Shown here piece by piece: positions 6,749 to 35,490 of a DNA stretch of 64,000 nucleotides. The notes under the pieces were generated by a model. That model made no database searches. It worked only from the letters and a program-made list of their open reading frames with translations, and had not been told where the DNA came from. Position numbers and translations under genes: made by a program. The DNA is taken from positions 96,001 through 160,000 of the forward strand of contig CAVQNT010000003.1 of NCBI GenBank assembly GCA_963714275.1, written 5' to 3'. Source of the DNA: Candidatus Bathyarchaeota archaeon (GTDB taxonomy: Archaea; Thermoproteota; Bathyarchaeia; Bathyarchaeales; DTEX01). Each line of letters begins with the position of its first letter. Position 1 is the stretch's first letter.

Positions 6749-7202
6749 GGCTGGAATTGATTACTAATCCCATAAAAACTTCGTAGCAGAAAATGAATAT
6801 ACCAACAGCTTTTGGCGACTTGTTTATGTTGTCAAGATCTATCCCTTTAGGTTTCACCTTGGCAAAAATATAGTAAAAAAGCCAACCAAAAAAGAGACTT
6901 ACAAACACGCTTATGATTACAATAAGAAACCTTTGAAAGTTAAAGAATCCCGTATACAATACTGTTTGACTTAGGAAAATAGGGTTCAGAGAAGTTCCAT
7001 GGATTACTAGTCCAACAAAAACGAGGAAGCCACCTACAAAGAGAGCAGTAGCATCTGGATCTTTTCTAATAATTGAGAACTCTTTTATGTCTATAGTTAT
7101 TCGGTCAAGAGCAGCTATTCCAAAGAAGCCAATTATCACACAGAACGAACTTGACAGAAGCACCCTTAAATACCACAAAAACATACCCGTTAAGAACGAC
7201 AA
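6732..7202 (-). CDS. Membrane protein with DUF350-like repeats
   Basis: Four TM segments, two LDRIT.DI.EF / KVKP.GIDL type units; overlaps the transglutaminase gene. Confidence 0.6.
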   Translation of the reverse strand: MSFLTGMFLWYLRVLLSSSFCVIIGFFGIAALDRITIDIKEFSIIRKDPDATALFVGGFLVFVGLVIHGTSLNPIFLSQTVLYTGFFNFQRFLIVIISVFVSLFFGWLFYYIFAKVKPKGIDLDNINKSPKAVGIFIFCYEVFMGLVINSSLAIPL

Positions 7203-7460
7203 TATATCTACCTCATTGATGCTCTTAATATTTTTTCTAGCTATGAATTTATATTTTTCCCAATTTTATAATAAATAAATTTTGCTTTGTATGTAGTTGA
7301 ATTTTTTGAAGCAATTTATGTTTGAATCAGCTGTAGTTTTGAGCACGATCTCTTTAAAGAAGGCTATTGCTGAATCACATATTGACAGTAGGAATTCCGA
7401 TTTCTTCGCTACTACAGCTGGAATAGATTGGGTTGAGTGTTATAGCACAAATTGTCAATG

Positions 7461-7790
7461 TTATGAGGAAGCTTTCTTTATAGATTCTTTTAAACCTTCA
7501 ACAGTCTTGTTAAGGACGATAACATCACCGATTGTCTCTACAGTGTCTACTGGAAGGAGAACTTCCATATGTTTCAGGCCAGGAGCCAACTTTAGTGTTA
7601 ATCCGAAAGGCTGTAACATTTTGTCAGACAATGCTATTACTAGGTGGATTACTTTCCAAGTTGAAGTGTCTATTTCAATGGCTGATACTGAGCCCAAATG
7701 TCTACCTTCCTTTGATATAACGTTCTTCGAATTTAAATCGTTTGGACGCAATCCTGCAACACCCCGTTGATGAACGATTATGATTCTCAA
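7461..7790 (-). CDS. PRC-barrel domain protein (start probably TTG at 7751)
   Basis: DLNSKNVISKEGRHLGSV..IEIDTSTWKV ... LPVDTVETIGDVIVL. Confidence 0.85.
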   Translation of the reverse strand: MRIIIVHQRGVAGLRPNDLNSKNVISKEGRHLGSVSAIEIDTSTWKVIHLVIALSDKMLQPFGLTLKLAPGLKHMEVLLPVDTVETIGDVIVLNKTVEGLKESIKKASS

Positions 7791-7995
7791 TAATAAATCT
7801 TTTATGATTCATTATTTTTTCTGTTAGGTTTACTGTGGTTATGGCTAGCTGATATTTTTTAGCGACTGGATAGAATTGACAGATTCTAGTGACTATCTGC
7901 TCAGGTTGGCAATTCTCTACTTATCCTTTCCCAAATTTTGCTTGATTCCTATGAGCTATTTATAGCACACTGCAATATTCCATATTGGTGTCATT

Positions 7996-9679
7996 ATGAC
8001 GCAGTCATCAACAACCAAGCCTTCATTTCTTTCAGTGCAACCTGTCTCAAGGAAGGTTGGGCTTTATGAAAAATTCGAGCTTCGAATCGACTTGAACGCA
8101 ACATATGCCAATCCTTTCAATCCTGAAGAGATTGACTTACAAGCTGAGTTCACATCCCCCACTGGCAAAGAATGGAAGATATGGGGCTTCTATAACCATT
8201 CAAGCTGGTCTCATCTTTGGATGGTTCGTTTCGCGCCGACGGAGAAAGGGGTCTGGAAATATATCGTGAAAGTAAAAGACATAGAGGGCACAGCTCAAAG
8301 CCAAGCTGACACCTTCGAGGTGATTGACTCGTTGCATCATGGTTTCATCAGGATCTCGCCGAATAAGCGCTATCTGATGTATGATGATGGCACATCCTTC
8401 TATGGTGTTGGACTATGGTACAACGATGGTTATGACCTGTTCAACGAGGGACACATTACAGCAGATGGACTTGATGAGCTTAAACGTCGAGGTGCTAATT
8501 TCATCAGCTTCTTTCACACGCCTCTTGAGACTATGGGCACCGGTTTGGGTCGTTATGACCAGAATCGGTGTGGTCGACTTGACCAACTCTTTGAATGGTG
8601 TGAGAAGCGTAATATCCACATATCCTGGAACATGTGGTTTCACTCGCATCTTTCCCAGGCTGTTTGGGGTCCTGGTGGAGCACTATACAGACACAATCCC
8701 TTTCATCTTGTAGCTGATGCTGTTGACTTCTTCGGTAGTAAAGAAGCCTGGAAGTTTCAAGAAAAAATCTGCCGTTACATAATCGCTCGTTGGGGGTATA
8801 GCCATGCATTGTTCCTATGGTTCATCATCGATGAAATTAATGGCACCGAAGGATGGCAGGATGGCGATAAAGATGTCGCCGAAAAGTGGTGTAGAAAGAT
8901 GGACGCCTTTTTCAATGAGCATGATCCCTACGGACGCCCTACCACAGGCACCCAAAGTGGGGGCATCGACGAATGGTGGCCAGGTGGATACAAAATCTTC
9001 GATATTGCAGCTCGCGAAATATATGAAGCGCAGGGACATCCTATGCCAAAGACAGGTAAAATCGACTGTGCCATTGAAAGCCCACTGCAATATAGCCTAT
9101 CGCAACTACTCTACCCAGATCCATAATCTGTGGAAAGGCTTCAACAAACCCGCCATTATCGGTGAGTGTGGCTGGGACCATACATATTATGAACCGGGAA
9201 CGCCAGGATATCTGGCAATGTATCACAATGCCTTATGGGTCAGCCTGACAAATGGTTTATGCTGTACACCATTCTGGTGGGCTTACTCAGATTGGATCAA
9301 CGATAGTGTTGTTACCAATCAAATGCACCACTTAGCAAACTTCGTTTCAGACATCGATTTCGCTCACCATAACCTTAAACCCGCTGAGATCAAGGCAGGT
9401 GACTGCGATGCATGGTGTATGAAGAACGACAAAATTATCTTCGGCTGGGTTGTTAATCCGCGTACCAGTGTTGCCAAAGAATCCTTCACGATCTCGGGGT
9501 TAAAAGATGGGAACTATGAAGTACATATCTATCACACATGGCGAGGTCAATACTTGAATGCGAACACACTTCAGTGTCAAGATGGAAAGCTCACCATCAT
9601 GATTCCAGAATTACAGAGAAGCCAGGACCACGCTTCACACATCGGAAATGACATCGCTTTCAAAATCGTTAGAAAATAA
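7996..9679 (+). CDS. DUF5060 + clan GH-A (GH5-like) glycoside hydrolase, frameshift near 9095
   Basis: YEKFEL..YANPFNP..AEFTSPTG..GFY..W.VRFAP..G.WKY; YIIARWG, IDEIN (acid/base), IIGECG (nucleophile). Confidence 0.8.
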
Positions 9680-29284: not shown

Positions 29285-29971
29285 TCAGTCTGTTGAAAGA
29301 AATACAGTTTGTCTCCACCTTGTTCTCGTAGAAAAGTAATAGTCCCAGTCACTGGCAAGCACCTTACATCGTTCTAGACTGTTCACGGTCAAATGGAAAT
29401 GTTGGCTTTCAACATGGTTATGTATCTCATCAAGTTCGCCTTCCTTCAATTTTTCTACGAAACTGTTACTCAGCGAAGTGTCCACAGGTAACTCGAATCC
29501 GTAGCCTACGACGCCTTCTTTCGAGATGACTGGTCTAATAGTCCACCTGGCTTCTTTCATGACCAGAACCATGTATAGCACGAAGGAACCGATACTTTTT
29601 ATCCAGACCCCATTTCCACTGTATTCCCATTCCTTCTCTAGTTCGCTGATGTCTCTTTCGAAACCCTCAGTTTTTGTAACCCTTTGGAACTCTTCAAGTT
29701 CTTTTGGGTTAAGCTCCTCGATTGTTGCTCCTGATTCCTGCAATTCCTCTGATAAGAAGATGTCGGGATGCAATCTCCTAAGGAGCAGAAGCTTCTCAAC
29801 GTGCCGATGTCTGGTCACGTAAACGTAGATGACGATTCCTTCTTTCGGTAACTGCTTCCGCACCATTATCGAACTGAAGTTCATCTTCTCGAAATTAACA
29901 TAAAAAGGTGGAACCTCAAGGGTCAGAAAGTTGCTGCCGAGACGAAACTGAATTCTACTAATCTGACTCAT
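29285..29971 (-). CDS. Hypothetical protein
   Basis: 228-aa ORF co-directional with neighbours; no recognised motif. Confidence 0.6.
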   Translation of the reverse strand: MSQISRIQFRLGSNFLTLEVPPFYVNFEKMNFSSIMVRKQLPKEGIVIYVYVTRHRHVEKLLLLRRLHPDIFLSEELQESGATIEELNPKELEEFQRVTKTEGFERDISELEKEWEYSGNGVWIKSIGSFVLYMVLVMKEARWTIRPVISKEGVVGYGFELPVDTSLSNSFVEKLKEGELDEIHNHVESQHFHLTVNSLERCKVLASDWDYYFSTRTRWRQTVFLSTD

Positions 29972-30008
29972 CTCTCAGCCGCCAATGGTATGCCCTTGAG
30001 TTCAATGC

Positions 30009-31342
30009 CTATATCGGAGGCGTTGGAAGATGCGCTGCTTTCACAGGTTCCTTTGCTAAGGTTACTTCCTGTTCTCTCTTCAACTCCTCCGTGTATTGCA
30101 ATTCCCCGATGATTCTGCATCCCCTTTCCAAGTGAACTCTCTTAGTGTAGACGTTTCTTGCAGTAGACTGCTCTTCCATAACCAGGGACTCGGCATAAAT
30201 GTCTTCAACTTCAGCCTTTTCTCCAAGTAATACATCTTTTGCCACAACGACCCCTATGATTTTACCATTCCTTCCGATTTCAACTTTGGTGGCCTTTGTT
30301 CCTTCTTCGGTCTCAATTCTACCACCAACGTCAACTGATGCCTCAAGCTTCAACCCTTCTAGCCTTCAATGAACCCCCAACACCTATAGACTCAGACTTT
30401 TAAGACTTCGCCAGCTTCGGCTGTTCCACCAACATCCAATTTTTTGGTCAATGTGAGATTTTTTTCTACAGATAGTTTCCCACCGACATCAATTGATTCG
30501 CCTTCAGCATCTCCGCGTATTTCTACAGTGCCACCGACGTCAATGTCCTCGAACTTCAGGTTTCCCTCGGTCCTTAAGGTTCCGCCAACATCAACCTTTC
30601 TTCCTTCACACCCACCAGCAAGTTCCACTTTGCCTCCGACATCAATCCAGTCGAAGGTTAAGGGCTTACTTGAAGCAAATGAACCGCCAACGCTTACTCT
30701 TCCTTTTACCTCGCCCCCTGCAACTTTAGCTGTTCCCCCGATGTGCAGTTCTTCGACTATGACCTCGGACTCTGATTCAAATGTGCCTCCGACGTTTATC
30801 TTGTCAGCCTTAACCAATCCTCTGCCATAAAACGTGCCACCTACGCTTATCCTAGAGATCGCTGTTGTGCCTTCTATCTTTGCAGTACCGCCTGCTTCTA
30901 ATTTTTTGGTTTCAACGTCGCCTTTCGCCTCGAAGACACCGCCAACCTCTATTTCGTCTGCCTTAGTGTTTCCTCCGACCCATATTTTTCCGCCTACTTC
31001 AACTTTCCCTGCGGAAAGGTCCTTCTCAACTGAAACCTTTTTGTCAACTTCAACATCGCCTGCCGTTAGGTTGCCTCCGACTTCTAAGCTGCCTTCGTAG
31101 ATTCTTATCGATTTTTCAATCGACAAGTCCCCCTTAACAATGAGGTCTCCATGTTTTCCTCTGATTGAGTTCGCATAAAGGCTGCACTCGAAGACGCAGT
31201 TGCCTTCGTATTGAACGCTACCTGAAACCTCAATTTTTTTAGCATCTTTCGCTTTAACTGTCGCCCCGTAAGTTAAGTTGAGATCACCGTCTACTCTGTC
31301 GAGTGTCTCTACTGATCCAGAATTTACATTTACACTTCCCAT
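30009..31342 (-). CDS. Long polymer-forming (bactofilin-like) beta-helix protein, frameshift near 30395
   Basis: Many ~16-17-aa x-V-G-G repeats; C-terminal IGRNGKIIG..A.DV.LG..AEVEDIYA..LERGCRIIGELQY. Confidence 0.75.
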
Positions 31343-31470
31343 ATTTTTTCGCCTTGGTGAACACATTCTCGGATTCATATATAAGGGTAGGGCACCCGAT
31401 GTGGACACAGGTCGTAATCACAAAATGTTACTAGCTCACTTATGTGTAACAACACTCCAAACGATTCATT

Positions 31471-31490
31471 TTTGTCACTTTTGTGACGAA
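31471..31490. promoter_or_regulatory. Putative operator palindrome between divergent bactofilin-like and KamA genes
   Basis: TTTGTCAC-TTTT-GTGACGAA just upstream of a TTTAAAA TATA-like box near 31504. Confidence 0.35.
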
Positions 31491-31537
31491 CATAATAGAA
31501 AGATTTAAAAGCGTGTTTTGAAACGCATATTTTCTTC

Positions 31538-32680
31538 GTGGCATGTATGTGCCACAGCGCGTGTTACGATAAGATGGTTGAAGACTGGGAAAATAGTCTT
31601 TCTGAAAGCATAACTAGACCCCATCAAATCCTCGAAAAATTTTCGGTCGATACAAAAGCTCTAGGCACCGTTGTCGCAAAATACCCAATGAAAATTTCTC
31701 GGTACTACTTTAACCTTATCCAAGAAGTGGGAGACCCAATCTGGAAACAGTGTGTCCCAAGTCCCTTTGAACTACAAGACCCGTGGGGAACCGAAGACCC
31801 TTTGAACGAAGAAGGCGACAGCCCAATATCAGGCTTGGTTCACCGCTACCCCGACAGAGTATTAATGTGTGTATCAAACAGCTGCGCAATGTTCTGCAGA
31901 TTCTGCACAAGAAAAAGGAAGGTTGGACAATCCTACGTTAACCTCTCAAAAGATGTCCTTTCAGAGCAAATAAGGTATGTTCAGAGGACCCTTGGCGTTC
32001 GAGATGTTCTGTTGTCCGGTGGAGACCCGCTGATTCTGCCTGACGACAGGATTGAATTTCTGCTTAGGAATCTAAGAGCGATACCTCATGTTGAAGTTCT
32101 GAGAATCGGGACAAGGGCACCATGCACGCTTCCACAAAGGATAACGCCTCAACTGTGTAACATACTGAAGAAGTATCACCCATTGTACGTTAACATGCAT
32201 TTTAATCACCCGCGGGAAATAACTGAAGAAAGCTCAAGAGCCTGCGGGCTCCTTGCTGACGCAGGAATCCCACTTGGCAACCAATCTGTGCTGCTTAAAG
32301 GAATCAACGATGACTCCGAGACCATGAAGAGCCTTGTTCAAAAGCTTCTAAAAATCAGGGTTAAACCTTACTATCTCTTCCAGATGGACCTTGTTAAAGG
32401 CACCTACCACTTTAGGACAAGGGTGGAAACTGGACTCAAAATAATCGAAGACCTCACAGGATACACTTCAGGCTTCGCTGTTCCACGCTACGTGATAGAC
32501 GCACCAGGCGGCGGAGGAAAAATTCCGATTCAGCCAAAGTACGTAGTAAGTATTGAAGAGAACCAAGTCATCATGAAAAACTATCAGGGAAAACAGTACG
32601 TTTACCCGCAGATTCCACAGGAAAAGAAGCCTTTGCAACAAATGGAGGGTCCTGTAGAGGTCTCTAGTGAAAGACGATGA
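31538..32680 (+). CDS. KamA-family radical SAM/PLP 2,3-aminomutase (lysine 2,3-aminomutase-like)
   Basis: HRYPDR, CAMFCRFCTR, LSGGDP, RIGTR, HFNHP, NQSVLL.G.ND, DAPGGGGKIP. Confidence 0.93.
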   Translation: MACMCHSACYDKMVEDWENSLSESITRPHQILEKFSVDTKALGTVVAKYPMKISRYYFNLIQEVGDPIWKQCVPSPFELQDPWGTEDPLNEEGDSPISGLVHRYPDRVLMCVSNSCAMFCRFCTRKRKVGQSYVNLSKDVLSEQIRYVQRTLGVRDVLLSGGDPLILPDDRIEFLLRNLRAIPHVEVLRIGTRAPCTLPQRITPQLCNILKKYHPLYVNMHFNHPREITEESSRACGLLADAGIPLGNQSVLLKGINDDSETMKSLVQKLLKIRVKPYYLFQMDLVKGTYHFRTRVETGLKIIEDLTGYTSGFAVPRYVIDAPGGGGKIPIQPKYVVSIEENQVIMKNYQGKQYVYPQIPQEKKPLQQMEGPVEVSSERR

Positions 32681-33732
32681 CGCTTAACGTCGGGTTAACT
32701 TACAACCTGAAAAAACCAGTTGACATGGTTGCGGGGCAACCGGAAGATTTCTACATCGAGTTTGACGATGAAGTGACAGTGGACGCTATAGCAGAGGCTT
32801 TGGGGAAAGGCGGATGCGAAGTAATAAAAATTGAAGCAAACGAAGAAGTATACAGTAAACTCTTGAGCCTAAGACCCGACTTCGTCTTCAACATTGCTGA
32901 GGGAATACGAGGTGAAAGCAGAGAGTCACAGATTCCCGTAATGCTGGAGATGCTTGGGATACCATACACTGGTTCAGGACCGTTAACGCTAGCCATAGCA
33001 TTAGACAAGGCTCTAACTCATCAGGTTCTAAGCGTTAACGGCGTTCCTTCCCCAAACTTTCAGGTGTTTTCGACGCCTAACCAGAAAAGGCAACGTAATC
33101 TTAAATTTCCGCTTGTTGTCAAGCCATTAGCTGAGGGCTCAAGCAAAGGGATCAGAAGCACCTCTCTCGTGAAAGACGAACAAAGCCTGCGGGAACAACT
33201 TTCATGGGTCATAAAGACCTATAAACAACCAGCCATAGTCGAAGAGTTCCTTCCTGGCAGAGAGTTCACGGTTGGCTTAATTGGCAATGATGCCCCCTAT
33301 GTCTTGCCCATAGTAGAAATCCTGCTTGAAAAACTGCCAAGTGGAGCCAGCCCAATATATTCTTACGAAGCAAAGTGGATCTGGGACGTGCCAGAAAAAC
33401 CATTGGACATTTTTAATTGTCCAGCTGACATTCCTGACGAGCTCGAAAAGGAAATACGAAAGACAGCCATTAAAACTTTCAAAGTTCTTAATTGCCGAGA
33501 CCTATGCCGCATGGATGTGAGACTCGACAAGAGTGACAAACCATGTATACTCGAAGTTAATCCTTTACCTGGGTTAATACCTGATCCCGACGCGCATTCC
33601 TGTCTTCCTGAAGCTGCTGGTGAAGCAGGTTTAACTTATGAGCAACTTATTTGCACCGTTTTGTGGCAGGCTCTGAAAAGGTATAATCTTCAACACCTGT
33701 TTAATGACCGTTCGCTTGTATGCCTTTTATAA
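32677..33732 (+). CDS. D-Ala-D-Ala ligase-like ATP-grasp enzyme (paralog 1)
   Basis: FNIAEG, GIPYTGS, VKP..EGSSKGI, EEFLPGREFTV, RMD.R, EVNPLPG. Confidence 0.9.
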   Translation: MTLNVGLTYNLKKPVDMVAGQPEDFYIEFDDEVTVDAIAEALGKGGCEVIKIEANEEVYSKLLSLRPDFVFNIAEGIRGESRESQIPVMLEMLGIPYTGSGPLTLAIALDKALTHQVLSVNGVPSPNFQVFSTPNQKRQRNLKFPLVVKPLAEGSSKGIRSTSLVKDEQSLREQLSWVIKTYKQPAIVEEFLPGREFTVGLIGNDAPYVLPIVEILLEKLPSGASPIYSYEAKWIWDVPEKPLDIFNCPADIPDELEKEIRKTAIKTFKVLNCRDLCRMDVRLDKSDKPCILEVNPLPGLIPDPDAHSCLPEAAGEAGLTYEQLICTVLWQALKRYNLQHLFNDRSLVCLL

Positions 33733-33745
33733 TTGAACTGTAAGG

Positions 33746-34777
33746 TTACTGGCTGCATTGCGATGCCCTATGCAAGGCAAAGTGGATTATTTTTTCGACG
33801 AACTGTTCATACGATAATCCAACAGCCTTCAAGGAACGCGAAAAACCTGCTTCCGGAGAAATGTCTGGGTTAGGGTTAACCTCTAAAATCCACGGCGAAT
33901 TGTCTCTTAGGCGAATGTCGATTCTCGCATAGTCTCTGCAGTAAAGAACCTCAAATGCCTGTAACGCAATCCTTTCAACGTTATTTTTTACTGAAGGGTC
34001 AAGTAAAGCGGGGCACACGGGCTTGGTTTTTTTGTATTCATCGCTTTCCTTAAACCATTTTGCTGAAAAGCCCACTATTTTTGGTTCGTCCTTAAAATCG
34101 AACGTTATCTCAGAGATTGGCAACGCTCTTGGGTTTTCGTTGCCCAATATCGCAACGTTCAGTTCTCTTCCAGCAATGTACTCCTCAACCAAAGCAGGCT
34201 GCTTGTAGCGATTGGTTATGTATTCAACTTGAGCCTTAAGTTCGGCTTCGTTTCTAACATAGCTTTTGTTTGATATGCCAATGCTTGCGTCCTCCCTTAA
34301 AGGTTTTACAAATAGGGGAAACCCTATGTCGTCCTGCAAATTTTGAGGGTTTTCGAGAACCTTGAATTTAGGTGTAGGCAACCCATTTGCTTCCAAAATT
34401 TTTTTAGTAAGCCCTTTATTTTGACACATTCCAAGTGCCAAAGGAGGTGAACCAGTGTAGGGTATGTTTAACAGCTCAAGCATTGATGGTACGTTCAACT
34501 CGTGGTGGCTGTTTCCAAAGGCACCTTCACAAAGGTTTATGACCACGTCAGGTCTGTAATTTTTTAATGCCTTGATTAAAAGTTCGAGGTCAATTTCAAA
34601 AGGCAACATTTGGTATTCGAAGCCCAGTTTATCCAGGGCTTTTTGAACCGATTCTGCTTGTTCCTCAACTTCAGCTTCAGCCACGTAGTCAGAATCTTCA
34701 CCTCTTGGCGGTTCAGCTGGGCGGTTGAAAAGAATACCAACTTTAAGTTTTTTCTTTCGTTTATCGCTTGTGCTCAT
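33746..34777 (-). CDS. D-Ala-D-Ala ligase-like ATP-grasp enzyme (paralog 2)
   Basis: NLCEG, IPYTGS, VKP..EDASIGI, EEYIAGRE, RIDIR, EVNPNPD. Confidence 0.9.
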   Translation of the reverse strand: MSTSDKRKKKLKVGILFNRPAEPPRGEDSDYVAEAEVEEQAESVQKALDKLGFEYQMLPFEIDLELLIKALKNYRPDVVINLCEGAFGNSHHELNVPSMLELLNIPYTGSPPLALGMCQNKGLTKKILEANGLPTPKFKVLENPQNLQDDIGFPLFVKPLREDASIGISNKSYVRNEAELKAQVEYITNRYKQPALVEEYIAGRELNVAILGNENPRALPISEITFDFKDEPKIVGFSAKWFKESDEYKKTKPVCPALLDPSVKNNVERIALQAFEVLYCRDYARIDIRLRDNSPWILEVNPNPDISPEAGFSRSLKAVGLSYEQFVEKIIHFALHRASQCSQ

Positions 34778-34938
34778 TCTCTTTTCATCCTAAATTACGA
34801 AGTAATGAATGTCTTAACATTTAACATTTAATTACTAAATTTATTGGACTTTCTTGAAGATAAGGAAAAACAAAACGTCAAGATAAAGCTTAAATAATTC
34901 CACTTTGGTCTCTTGTTTTATCCCTTTGGAGGGACGCT

Positions 34939-35490
34939 TTGAAACCTGAAATTATTAACGCAAAACAAACTAAACTTAAAGTTAAAGACATCAAAGCCAT
35001 CGCTGAAATAGAGTGTCACGAAAAAGTTCGCGGCTGGCTCATTATACGCGTCGAGAACGACGTTGAAAGAGAGTACCTATCCTATAGAAGATTCTTTCGA
35101 AACTTGCCAAAAAACAGAAGAGCCGAAATCCTCGTAGCTAAACAAGATGACAGAGTCGCTGGATTCCTGGGATTATGGCGGTTGGGAGGATACATGGACC
35201 ATGTTGCAGCCATAGGTGTCAGCGTTCACCCCGATTTTTGGGGAAAAAAAATCGCCACACACCTCATGAAGGCAGCAATCAAACTTGCAAAAAAGAACGG
35301 ACTTCTTAGGTTAGAAATTGAAACTCGTTCAGACAACACAGCAATGCGGCACGTGGCAGAGAAGTCAGGATTCAAACTTGAAAAGTTAAGGCGTAAACGA
35401 ATTCGGAAGAACGGGTCCTTCTTTGACGAAGCCTCATATTACTTACTTATCGACAATGCGGTCCCAGGGAAACTAAGACGAAAGGAATAG
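34939..35490 (+). CDS. GNAT family N-acetyltransferase
   Basis: VSVHPDFWGKKIA, NTAM..AEKSGF. Confidence 0.88.
   Translation: MKPEIINAKQTKLKVKDIKAIAEIECHEKVRGWLIIRVENDVEREYLSYRRFFRNLPKNRRAEILVAKQDDRVAGFLGLWRLGGYMDHVAAIGVSVHPDFWGKKIATHLMKAAIKLAKKNGLLRLEIETRSDNTAMRHVAEKSGFKLEKLRRKRIRKNGSFFDEASYYLLIDNAVPGKLRRKE

Follow-up and report, generated by a model that had tools for sequence, protein, structure and literature searches.

Among the described systems closest to the locus reported here, EpmB/EpmA provide beta-lysine for a protein: a short KamA-family enzyme without a C-terminal Zn domain (EpmB) supplies it to a dedicated ligase (EpmA), which is a LysRS paralog rather than an ATP-grasp enzyme and acts on a bacterial target, EF-P. 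The Ngg/AsnO route couples GNAT activity to an ATP-grasp dipeptide ligase and leads to an N-acetylated dipeptide solute, N-acetylglutaminylglutamine amide. PylB, a radical S-adenosylmethionine (SAM) enzyme, and PylC, an ATP-grasp enzyme, rearrange lysine to a nonproteinogenic diamino acid and join it to an amine. The Fig. 2 legend of PMC7593587 designates them 3-methylornithine synthase and 3-methylornithine-L-lysine ligase, respectively. AblA and AblB appear in PMC11201294 as a lysine 2,3-aminomutase and a beta-lysine N6-acetyltransferase forming one pathway; their product is the N-epsilon-acetyl-beta-lysine osmolyte of methanogens. Here, we analyzed a four-gene locus within a 64,000-nucleotide stretch of DNA from Candidatus Bathyarchaeota archaeon (contig CAVQNT010000003.1, positions 96,001 to 160,000; hereafter, the window). 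It encodes a KamA-family aminomutase (KamA), two paralogous ATP-grasp ligases (Lig1 and Lig2) related to D-alanine-D-alanine ligase (Ddl), and a GNAT N-acyltransferase (GNAT). With a probability of about 0.6, this cassette would convert lysine to beta-lysine, ligate it to an amino acid by means of Lig1, perform a second ligation by means of Lig2, and N-acetylate an amine, thus making a small beta-lysine amide or peptide; our confidence in any specific product is much lower.

The cassette shares with AblA/AblB a KamA-family aminomutase and a GNAT acting on a lysine-derived small molecule. Unlike that pathway, it contains two integral ATP-grasp ligases, one of them obligate, its KamA scores below the AblA cut-off, and its GNAT, which some lineages can do without, derives from at least three unrelated GNAT lines; moreover, no AblB-family GNAT was found in the host genome (2.64 Mb, 91% complete, of which the window is contig 3). 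PylB/PylC provide the closest analogy, albeit in logic only: the cassette mutase is a pyridoxal phosphate (PLP)-dependent KamA, a second ligase and a GNAT are present, and there is no PylD. PylC chains were absent from the 39 PDB sequences matched by Lig1 and from the 39 matched by Lig2 (E up to 0.001). The Ddl enzymes (DdlA/DdlB and the VanA family) have the same fold and ATP/Mg residues as the cassette ligases, which are predicted to dimerize via the same region. However, the latter fall below the Ddl family cut-offs, have altered pockets, have lost the N-terminal GGxS, and have KamA as genomic partner in organisms without murein. Ngg/AsnO differ from the cassette in their ATP-grasp and GNAT families and in the amino acids used, and the cassette has no amidotransferase; the EpmB/EpmA system differs in that the cassette KamA scores below the EpmB cut-off. 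The locus is a conserved, biosynthetic cassette built from known enzyme families that apparently has no described pathway counterpart. Full-text literature searches, which did not cover subscription journals and bioRxiv supplements, returned no paper whose title or abstract describes the cassette or its product, and the excerpt of one related paper mentions ablA/ablB only (PMC11201294). New here are the split of the cassette into core and accessory parts, its recruitment of at least three unrelated GNAT lineages, the pocket switches of the ligases, and a predicted Lig1-Lig2 heterodimer.

Gene layout and conservation of the cassette

A first-pass annotation of the window had placed KamA overlapping Lig1, Lig2 converging on Lig1, and GNAT diverging from Lig2. 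Open reading frames (ORFs) and base-by-base reading of the window gave the same geometry:

KamA, 31538-32680, plus strand: aminomutase of 380 amino acids (aa), with its TGA stop inside the ATGA at 32677-32680
Lig1, 32677-33732, plus strand: Ddl-fold ATP-grasp ligase of 351 aa, with its start in the ATGA overlapping the KamA stop
Lig2, 33746-34777, minus strand: paralogous Ddl-fold ATP-grasp ligase of 343 aa, convergent on Lig1
GNAT, 34939-35490, plus strand: GNAT N-acyltransferase of 183 aa, divergent from Lig2

Lig1 is translationally coupled to KamA, and the Lig1 and Lig2 stops are separated by 13 bp (33733-33745).

Conservation of this neighborhood was assessed in a sample of 301 genomes of the phylum (Thermoproteota). 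Besides the host, 18 relatives encode a Lig1 ortholog (66 to 75% identity), distributed among families f1 (5 genomes), f10 (1), f19 (5), f24 (4), and f39 (3). In all 18, a KamA ortholog (68 to 77% identity) lies directly upstream of Lig1 on the same strand; other KamA paralogs (38 to 56% identity) come from genomes that have no Lig1. Of the 18 relatives, 13 have Lig2, which is convergent beside Lig1 in 12 and lies on another contig in G041. It was not found in the remaining five, upon genome-wide searches in G057, G121, and G246 and searches with the Lig1 query in G089 and G113. A GNAT of the window type is linked to the cassette in 9 of the 18 relatives. Three arrangements occur: the gene diverges from Lig2 (G093 and G021), lies directly upstream of KamA (G197, G101, G045, G260, G151, and G193), or sits beside Lig2 in the separate G041 locus. 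The other nine yielded no such GNAT, either genome-wide (G057, G121, G017, G025, and G246) or, in four genomes, within the fetched flanks. Clustering of all flanking ORFs from the resulting 19 Thermoproteota loci (that of the window included) revealed no other gene common across families. The recurrence of these genes together in 18/18 relatives, and in many bacterial phyla as described below, makes an arrangement by chance far-fetched.

Two features of the Lig2 neighborhood were recorded in individual lineages. The Lig2 match of G197 is split into two overlapping pieces at L034:7007-8229 (7007-7732 and 7834-8229), pointing to a frameshift, gene decay, or an assembly error. A Cys-rich protein of 208 to 213 aa without a Pfam match is encoded directly beside Lig2 in families f24 and f39 (L041:6853-7494, L043:6186-6827, L045:10151-10777, and L046:8235-8873). 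In f24, which has no GNAT, this gene lies upstream of Lig2 on the same strand. The protein could be a lineage-specific extra part.

To look beyond the phylum, we used a Lig1 profile to fetch the best 80 of 598 loci, of which 3 belong to Bathyarchaeia, 1 to an Aenigmatarchaeota archaeon, and the rest to bacteria of many phyla. The 77 loci outside Bathyarchaeia comprise a Lig2-type gene in 61 cases, KamA in 56, a small GNAT in 56, and all four genes in 53; two hold KamA and Lig1 alone. Their prevailing order is Lig1-Lig2-GNAT-KamA on one strand, and they show no further conserved neighbor. Specifically, neither these 77 nor the 19 Thermoproteota loci have a carrier, transporter, or peptidase gene that is common across families. 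Judging from record titles, the carriers include isolates or named species, e.g., Stygiobacter electus strain 09-Me and Ignavibacterium album.

Gene fusions were surveyed among the 150 best Lig1 representatives at 50% identity, classed with custom Lig1 and Lig2 profiles and Pfam. Seventeen are Lig1-Lig2 fusions. KamA is fused to Lig1 in P0126 and P0262 (KamA-Lig1) and in P0246 (Lig1-KamA), and P0245 is a Lig2-GNAT fusion whose ligase is 45% identical to Lig2. Sixteen further two-domain proteins (e.g., P0122-P0124 and P0128) consist of an N-terminal, divergent third ligase-like domain, which scores 88 to 253 bits against the Lig1 profile, and a C-terminal Lig1-type half. In a FastTree phylogeny of 82 of the 166 ligase rows, the Lig2-type sequences, bacterial and archaeal alike, formed one clade (SH-like support, 99), and therefore the ligase duplication would predate the spread of the cassette. 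Thermoproteota sequences grouped in a single clade for Lig1 (support, 100) and another for Lig2 (support, 99), which fits a single origin followed by rearrangement.

The idea, put forward on first inspection, that the four genes form a functional unit is thus substantiated by conserved linkage, by linkage that persists through rearrangement, and by gene fusions, with one refinement: Lig2 and GNAT are dispensable in some lineages. Two outcomes that the first-pass annotation had named as counting against its reading, a cluster without conservation and a GNAT unlinked in relatives, did not occur, as the cluster is conserved and GNAT is linked in 9/18 relatives. The fusions, the split locus of G041, and the layout of the window together define KamA and Lig1 as the obligate core and Lig2 and GNAT as an accessory pair that is absent in some lineages.

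Aminomutase, ligases, and acyltransferase

KamA has the Pfam domains Radical_SAM and LAM_C and is a member of the KamA subfamily by its NCBIfam model, TIGR00238 (286.6 bits; cut-off, 199.2). The highest-scoring equivalog is the AblA lysine 2,3-aminomutase model TIGR03820, whose cut-off the protein does not reach (473.9 versus 525.4 bits); it also falls below those of the models for glutamate 2,3-aminomutase (TIGR04368; 434.8 versus 650), arginine 2,3-aminomutase (TIGR04468; 343.3 versus 600), and EpmB (TIGR03821; 248.2 versus 369.3). The best E value of 22 cassette KamAs against the AblA model was 6.7e-149. Alignment to the Clostridium lysine 2,3-aminomutase 2A5H (E = 1.4e-117; core approximately 60% identical, as counted on the printed alignment) placed the CxxxCxxC cysteines C116/C120/C123 on C125/C129/C132, and R125, D284, D321, and K328 on R134, D293, D330, and the PLP-binding K337. 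R134 and D293/D330, which we take from the lysine aminomutase literature to be the lysine-type substrate residues of 2A5H, are therefore all matched, and the two aspartates that had been noticed in the FQMD (D284) and VIDAP (D321) motifs indeed occupy the D293 and D330 positions. Similarly, the reported lack of a C-terminal Zn-binding Cys cluster holds, and the Zn ligand C268 is replaced by Ser260; these elements together presumably form the Zn site of the clostridial enzyme. These traits extend to 72 cassette-linked KamAs from archaea and bacteria. All 72 have the CxxxCxxC motif, R134, and D293, and D330 and K337 are each conserved in 71/72; the C268 position is never Cys, and a tail with at least three Cys occurs in 1 of 70. 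The cassette KamA is the sole KamA-family gene matched in the host genome. It is a short form of the family that lacks the Zn site, and its residues point to conversion of L-lysine to beta-lysine as the predicted reaction.

Lig1 and Lig2 are 38% identical to each other and are the only Ddl-type genes in the host genome. Both match the Pfam domain Dala_Dala_lig_C (130.3 and 127.9 bits, respectively), and their solved relatives are Ddl enzymes only (PDB sequence matches; E ~1e-29). An AF2 model of Lig1 (predicted local distance difference test [pLDDT], 95.5) likewise has Ddl structures as its nearest folds (TMq, 0.73 to 0.75; 27% identity), with nothing closer. The suspicion that these are not ordinary Ddl enzymes is nonetheless well founded, given their changed substrate residues and their scores under the NCBIfam Ddl cut-offs (NF002378, 243; TIGR01205, 245.65), which are 205.4 and 168.8 bits for Lig1 and 173.2 and 160.8 bits for Lig2. 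We aligned 93 Lig1-type and 72 Lig2-type sequences with Escherichia coli DdlB as the reference (MAFFT). Lig1 and Lig2 carry all of the DdlB ATP/Mg residues K97, K144, E180, E187, K215, R255, D257, E270, and N272, each of which is conserved in at least 96% of the sequences of either type; both ligases should therefore be active enzymes. Both types replace DdlB H63 by Glu and Y216 by Trp and share additional conserved charged residues (E214/E223, D275/D282, and R282/R289 in Lig1/Lig2 numbering). An invariant R82 is exclusive to Lig1-type sequences, and R314 (99%) to those of the Lig2 type.

The two types are distinguished by switches at Ddl substrate positions, which are family-wide from bacteria to archaea. 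Lig1-type sequences have an EGSS loop, an EFTV strand, and an NPLPG Mg loop with a four-residue insert, whereas the corresponding motifs of the Lig2 type are EDAS, ELNV, and NPNPD. DdlB S150 is Ser in 93/93 Lig1-type and Ala in 66/72 Lig2-type sequences, G276 is Gly in 93/93 versus Asp in 71/72, S281 is Ser in 93/93 versus Ala in 50/72, and L282 is Cys in 63/93 versus Gly in 71/72. The contrast between EVNPLPG and EVNPNPD first noticed in the window ligases thus reflects the family-wide change at G276. The window Lig1 carries the invariant equivalent of Ddl S281 at S308. We take E15 (the donor-amine Glu), S150, Y216, S281/L282, and H63 from the Ddl literature to be substrate residues. When read against this mechanism, Lig1 would retain the acceptor-carboxylate site and Lig2 would have lost it, offering an Asp instead. 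The GGxSxE motif was initially described as lost from both ligases; its GG and Ser are gone, but a Glu is kept, as E28 in Lig1 (97% of Lig1-type sequences) and E34 in Lig2 (85% of Lig2-type sequences). E28 and E34 may be equivalent to Ddl E15: HMMER lines up AEAEV of Lig2 with AEHEV of Ddl, in a nonsignificant stretch only, and MAFFT puts the Glu in gappy columns.

Two other members of the same Ddl-like subfamily, from the same phylum, are joined to different partners. L025:307-2484 (minus strand; family f12) encodes a 725-aa fusion of ATP-grasp and Peptidase_M20 domains (Pfam), and L026:1435-3444 (minus strand; family f25) encodes a 669-aa protein whose N-terminal half has, by eye, a SAM-methyltransferase-like glycine motif.

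Structure prediction of the Lig1-Lig2 complex gave a score of 0.82, compared with 0.00 for the best of three controls. The mark applied to this score is reached by 116 of 157 solved complexes and by 2 of 215 mismatched pairs, counts that hold roughly since custom alignments were used here. The runs agreed in at least 97% of contacts, and the pLDDT of the partner was at least 85. The predicted interface involves residues 56 to 121 of Lig1 and 64 to 131 of Lig2, a region that we take to be the Ddl dimer interface; the favorable score may thus reflect likeness to solved Ddl homodimers. Independent support for the predicted Lig1-Lig2 heterodimer comes from the 17 Lig1-Lig2 fusions.

GNAT matches Acetyltransf_1 (70.1 bits; cut-off, 20.7) and belongs to a narrow Bathyarchaeia-type family (GNATa) of 30 clusters at 58% identity or more, after which scores drop to 37 to 39 bits. 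Orthology between the archaeal and bacterial cassette GNATs was considered and rejected on the basis of reciprocal profile scores. Against the bacterial cassette profile, the window GNAT scores 14.2 bits and ranks seventh in the host genome, and the bacterial proteins reach at most 23.9 bits against the archaeal profile. The GNAT domain of the P0245 fusion matches neither type (11.3 and 0.2 bits; no BLAST match). By these scores, at least three unrelated GNAT lineages have been recruited to the cassette, which argues that acyl transfer itself matters. The AF2 model of the window GNAT (pLDDT, 90.0) has GNAT structures as best folds, the nearest being YncA, phosphinothricin and arsinothricin acetyltransferases, PA4866, and SpeG (14 to 25% identity), with RimI and RimJ entries also present. 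These neighbors provide a weak hint that the substrate is a small-molecule amine.

Predicted pathway and its alternatives

We propose the following sequence of reactions. KamA would convert L-lysine to beta-lysine, as suggested by its family and active-site residues. Lig1, whose linkage to KamA is observed, would take beta-lysine directly from it, activate it as an acyl phosphate, and join it to a partner that presents a carboxylate beside the attacking amine, as in Ddl. Such an acceptor would be an amino acid, the simplest candidates being a second beta-lysine or lysine. Lig2, probably as a heterodimer with Lig1, would form a second amide bond. This bond is expected to be chemically different because the Lig2 acceptor pocket has lost the carboxylate-binding Ser of Ddl and gained an invariant Asp. 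Finally, GNAT, which is functionally tied to Lig2, may N-acetylate a free amine of the substrate or product. A small cytoplasmic molecule, for instance a stress solute or a polycation-like compound, is the most likely product. More tentatively, and as a possibility that we consider rather doubtful, the Lig1/Lig2 heterodimer may make a new class of metabolite without a ribosome or nonribosomal peptide synthetase, namely beta-lysyl-beta-lysine or a short, N-acetyl-capped oligo-beta-lysine (iso)peptide. In sediment-dwelling anaerobes, both archaea and bacteria from many phyla, this compound would act in the cytoplasm as a general protectant or a polycation.

Several observations weigh against this proposal. 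Neither biochemical nor metabolite data were found for any cassette member. That Lig2 was not found in 5/18 relatives, nor GNAT in 9/18, means that a product of two ligations plus acetylation cannot be universal. The KamA residues tested do not separate lysine from arginine, and the arginine 2,3-aminomutase model also recognizes the window KamA (343.3 bits). The donor-amine Glu in the N-terminal part of Ddl is not confidently alignable in the ligases, and the interpretation of the pockets uses residue roles taken from the literature on Ddl (E15/S150/Y216 and S281/L282) and lysine aminomutase (D293/D330). Finally, the 80 loci from the wider search were ranked by Lig1 likeness, so the counts derived from them are not unbiased frequencies.

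An alternative is that the acceptor is macromolecular, the ligases adding beta-lysine to a side chain or terminus of a protein or to the tail of a cofactor, as do EpmA/EpmB on EF-P, RimK on S6, and LysX on LysW. ATP-grasp enzymes of this general kind (presumably including RimK and LysX) modify proteins, and KamA-family EpmB, whose model recognizes the window KamA below its cut-off, feeds such a modification. The first-pass annotation had left the choice between a beta-lysine peptide and a protein or cofactor modification open; the latter finds no support in the genomic context, since neither the 19 Thermoproteota nor the 77 other loci contain a conserved gene for a target or carrier alongside the cassette. 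Furthermore, the residue with which Ddl holds the free carboxylate of its acceptor is retained in Lig1, and the nearest GNAT folds are acetyltransferases of small-molecule amines (YncA, phosphinothricin acetyltransferase, and SpeG), even if RimI and RimJ entries accompany them. We therefore regard a macromolecular acceptor as unlikely, and the same applies, with slightly less in its favor, to an aminomutase that acts on arginine or another basic amino acid to give a product derived from beta-arginine or a similar beta-amino acid. All 22 cassette KamAs tested were matched by the arginine 2,3-aminomutase model (best E, 1.1e-133), which is short (351 positions), like these proteins, and the two Asp could equally bind a guanidinium group. 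However, the AblA model gave the window KamA a higher score than the arginine model, and the core of the protein is closely similar to the lysine enzyme 2A5H.

The remaining explanations assign the ligases to other tasks. An ordinary AblA/AblB-type route, with KamA and GNAT making N-epsilon-acetyl-beta-lysine next to unrelated ligases, would account for AblA being the best-scoring model and for the nearby GNAT, and such a two-enzyme route is known (PMC11201294). Nevertheless, KamA falls short of the AblA cut-off, and the AblB-family model TIGR03827 had no match in the host genome, while as a control it matched in 6 of 14 genomes. Half of the relatives yielded no GNAT, whereas Lig1 adjoins KamA in all of them, and KamA-Lig1 fusions exist. 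In addition, the DNA sequencing runs that hold the locus (none of those listed is an RNA run) carry the labels freshwater sediment, wetland, peat, and sediment, which speaks weakly against a role tied to salt. We consider this route improbable. A catabolic role, in which KamA opens lysine fermentation while the ligases and GNAT serve other pathways, is more improbable still. Such a role would agree with the clostridial enzyme, which presumably starts lysine fermentation, and with Bathyarchaeia, which are often described as degraders of proteins and amino acids. Against it, the strict coupling and fusion of KamA and Lig1 argue for biosynthesis, and no match to the 3-keto-5-aminohexanoate cleavage enzyme (BKACE) was found in the host genome, the control having matched in one genome; beta-lysine 5,6-aminomutase alpha (PF09043) had no match there either, but its control matched nowhere. 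Lastly, true D-Ala-D-Ala or D-Ala-D-X ligases serving a cell-wall-like polymer are scarcely credible. The domain scores and the best PDB sequence and fold matches are all those of Ddl. Conversely, both proteins score below the Ddl cut-offs, H63 and Y216 are replaced in both types, Lig2 has lost the residues at S150, G276, S281, and L282, and the genomic context is always KamA and never mur genes. Many carrier bacteria belong to murein-making phyla and would be expected to have their own Ddl as well.

Replacement of polyamines by the cassette product was also considered and rejected, as the cassette is not anticorrelated with spermidine synthase (PF01564) in the 301 genomes. The host genome has no PF01564 match, 217 of the 301 genomes have one, and the host encodes two pyruvoyl arginine decarboxylase genes. 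Among the 19 cassette genomes, the match is strong in 12 (f19, 5; f24, 4; f39, 3), weak in 3, and missing in 4. The family is also mostly missing from neighboring Bathyarchaeia families without the cassette (f2, 1/16; f3, 0/2; f4, 0/4; f5, 0/5).

If the proposed beta-lysine pathway is correct, a whole branch of the D-Ala-D-Ala ligases has been turned to beta-amino-acid chemistry. Its members are currently annotated as D-alanine-D-alanine ligases or generic ATP-grasp proteins, even when they come from murein-free archaea. Many uncultured anaerobes, including Bathyarchaeia, Ignavibacteriota, Desulfuromonadales, Acidobacteriota, and Verrucomicrobiota, would in that case produce a compound from lysine that is missing from every metabolomics library, and the enzymes would be new tools for ATP-driven formation of beta-peptide bonds. 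The compactness of this four-gene cassette, which has no other conserved parts, and the existence of isolates or named species among its carriers make the question directly testable.

Promoters and neighboring genes

Two upstream regions of the locus have features relevant to transcription:

Promoter-like element, 31492-31512, plus strand: B recognition element (BRE)/TATA-like sequence ATAATAGAAAGATTTAAAAGC, with the TATA box TTTAAAA at 31504-31510, ~30 nt 5' of the KamA GTG
Lig2/GNAT divergent spacer, 34778-34938, no strand: 161 bp, AT-rich

In three loci of the same family (L032, L033, and L050), the BRE/TATA-like element is found at an identical distance from a conserved CGTG start, and families f19 and f24 have analogous A/T boxes. 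It is therefore a candidate promoter, and its distance of ~30 nt from the KamA GTG predicts a leaderless or very short-leader kamA-lig1 transcript. A perfect inverted repeat just 5' of the KamA TATA-like box (GTCAC-N4-GTGAC; 31474-31487) was dropped as a regulatory site upon its absence from the equivalent position in relatives. The window as a whole gave no Rfam match at or above a gathering score, and hence it contains no known riboswitch or leader. The promoters of both Lig2 and GNAT presumably sit in the 161-bp spacer; the same divergent layout is found in G093, G021, and L050. GGAGGG immediately precedes the TTG start of GNAT.

Three minus-strand genes lie 5' of KamA (29285-31408), but their linkage to the cassette does not extend to other families. 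Two of their products, of 114 and 228 aa, have no Pfam match, and the third is a repeat protein of 338 aa with abundant (D/E)VGG units and a weak match to pAdhesive_15 (27.5 bits). In G093 and G021, which belong to the same family as the host, all three keep synteny with the cassette.

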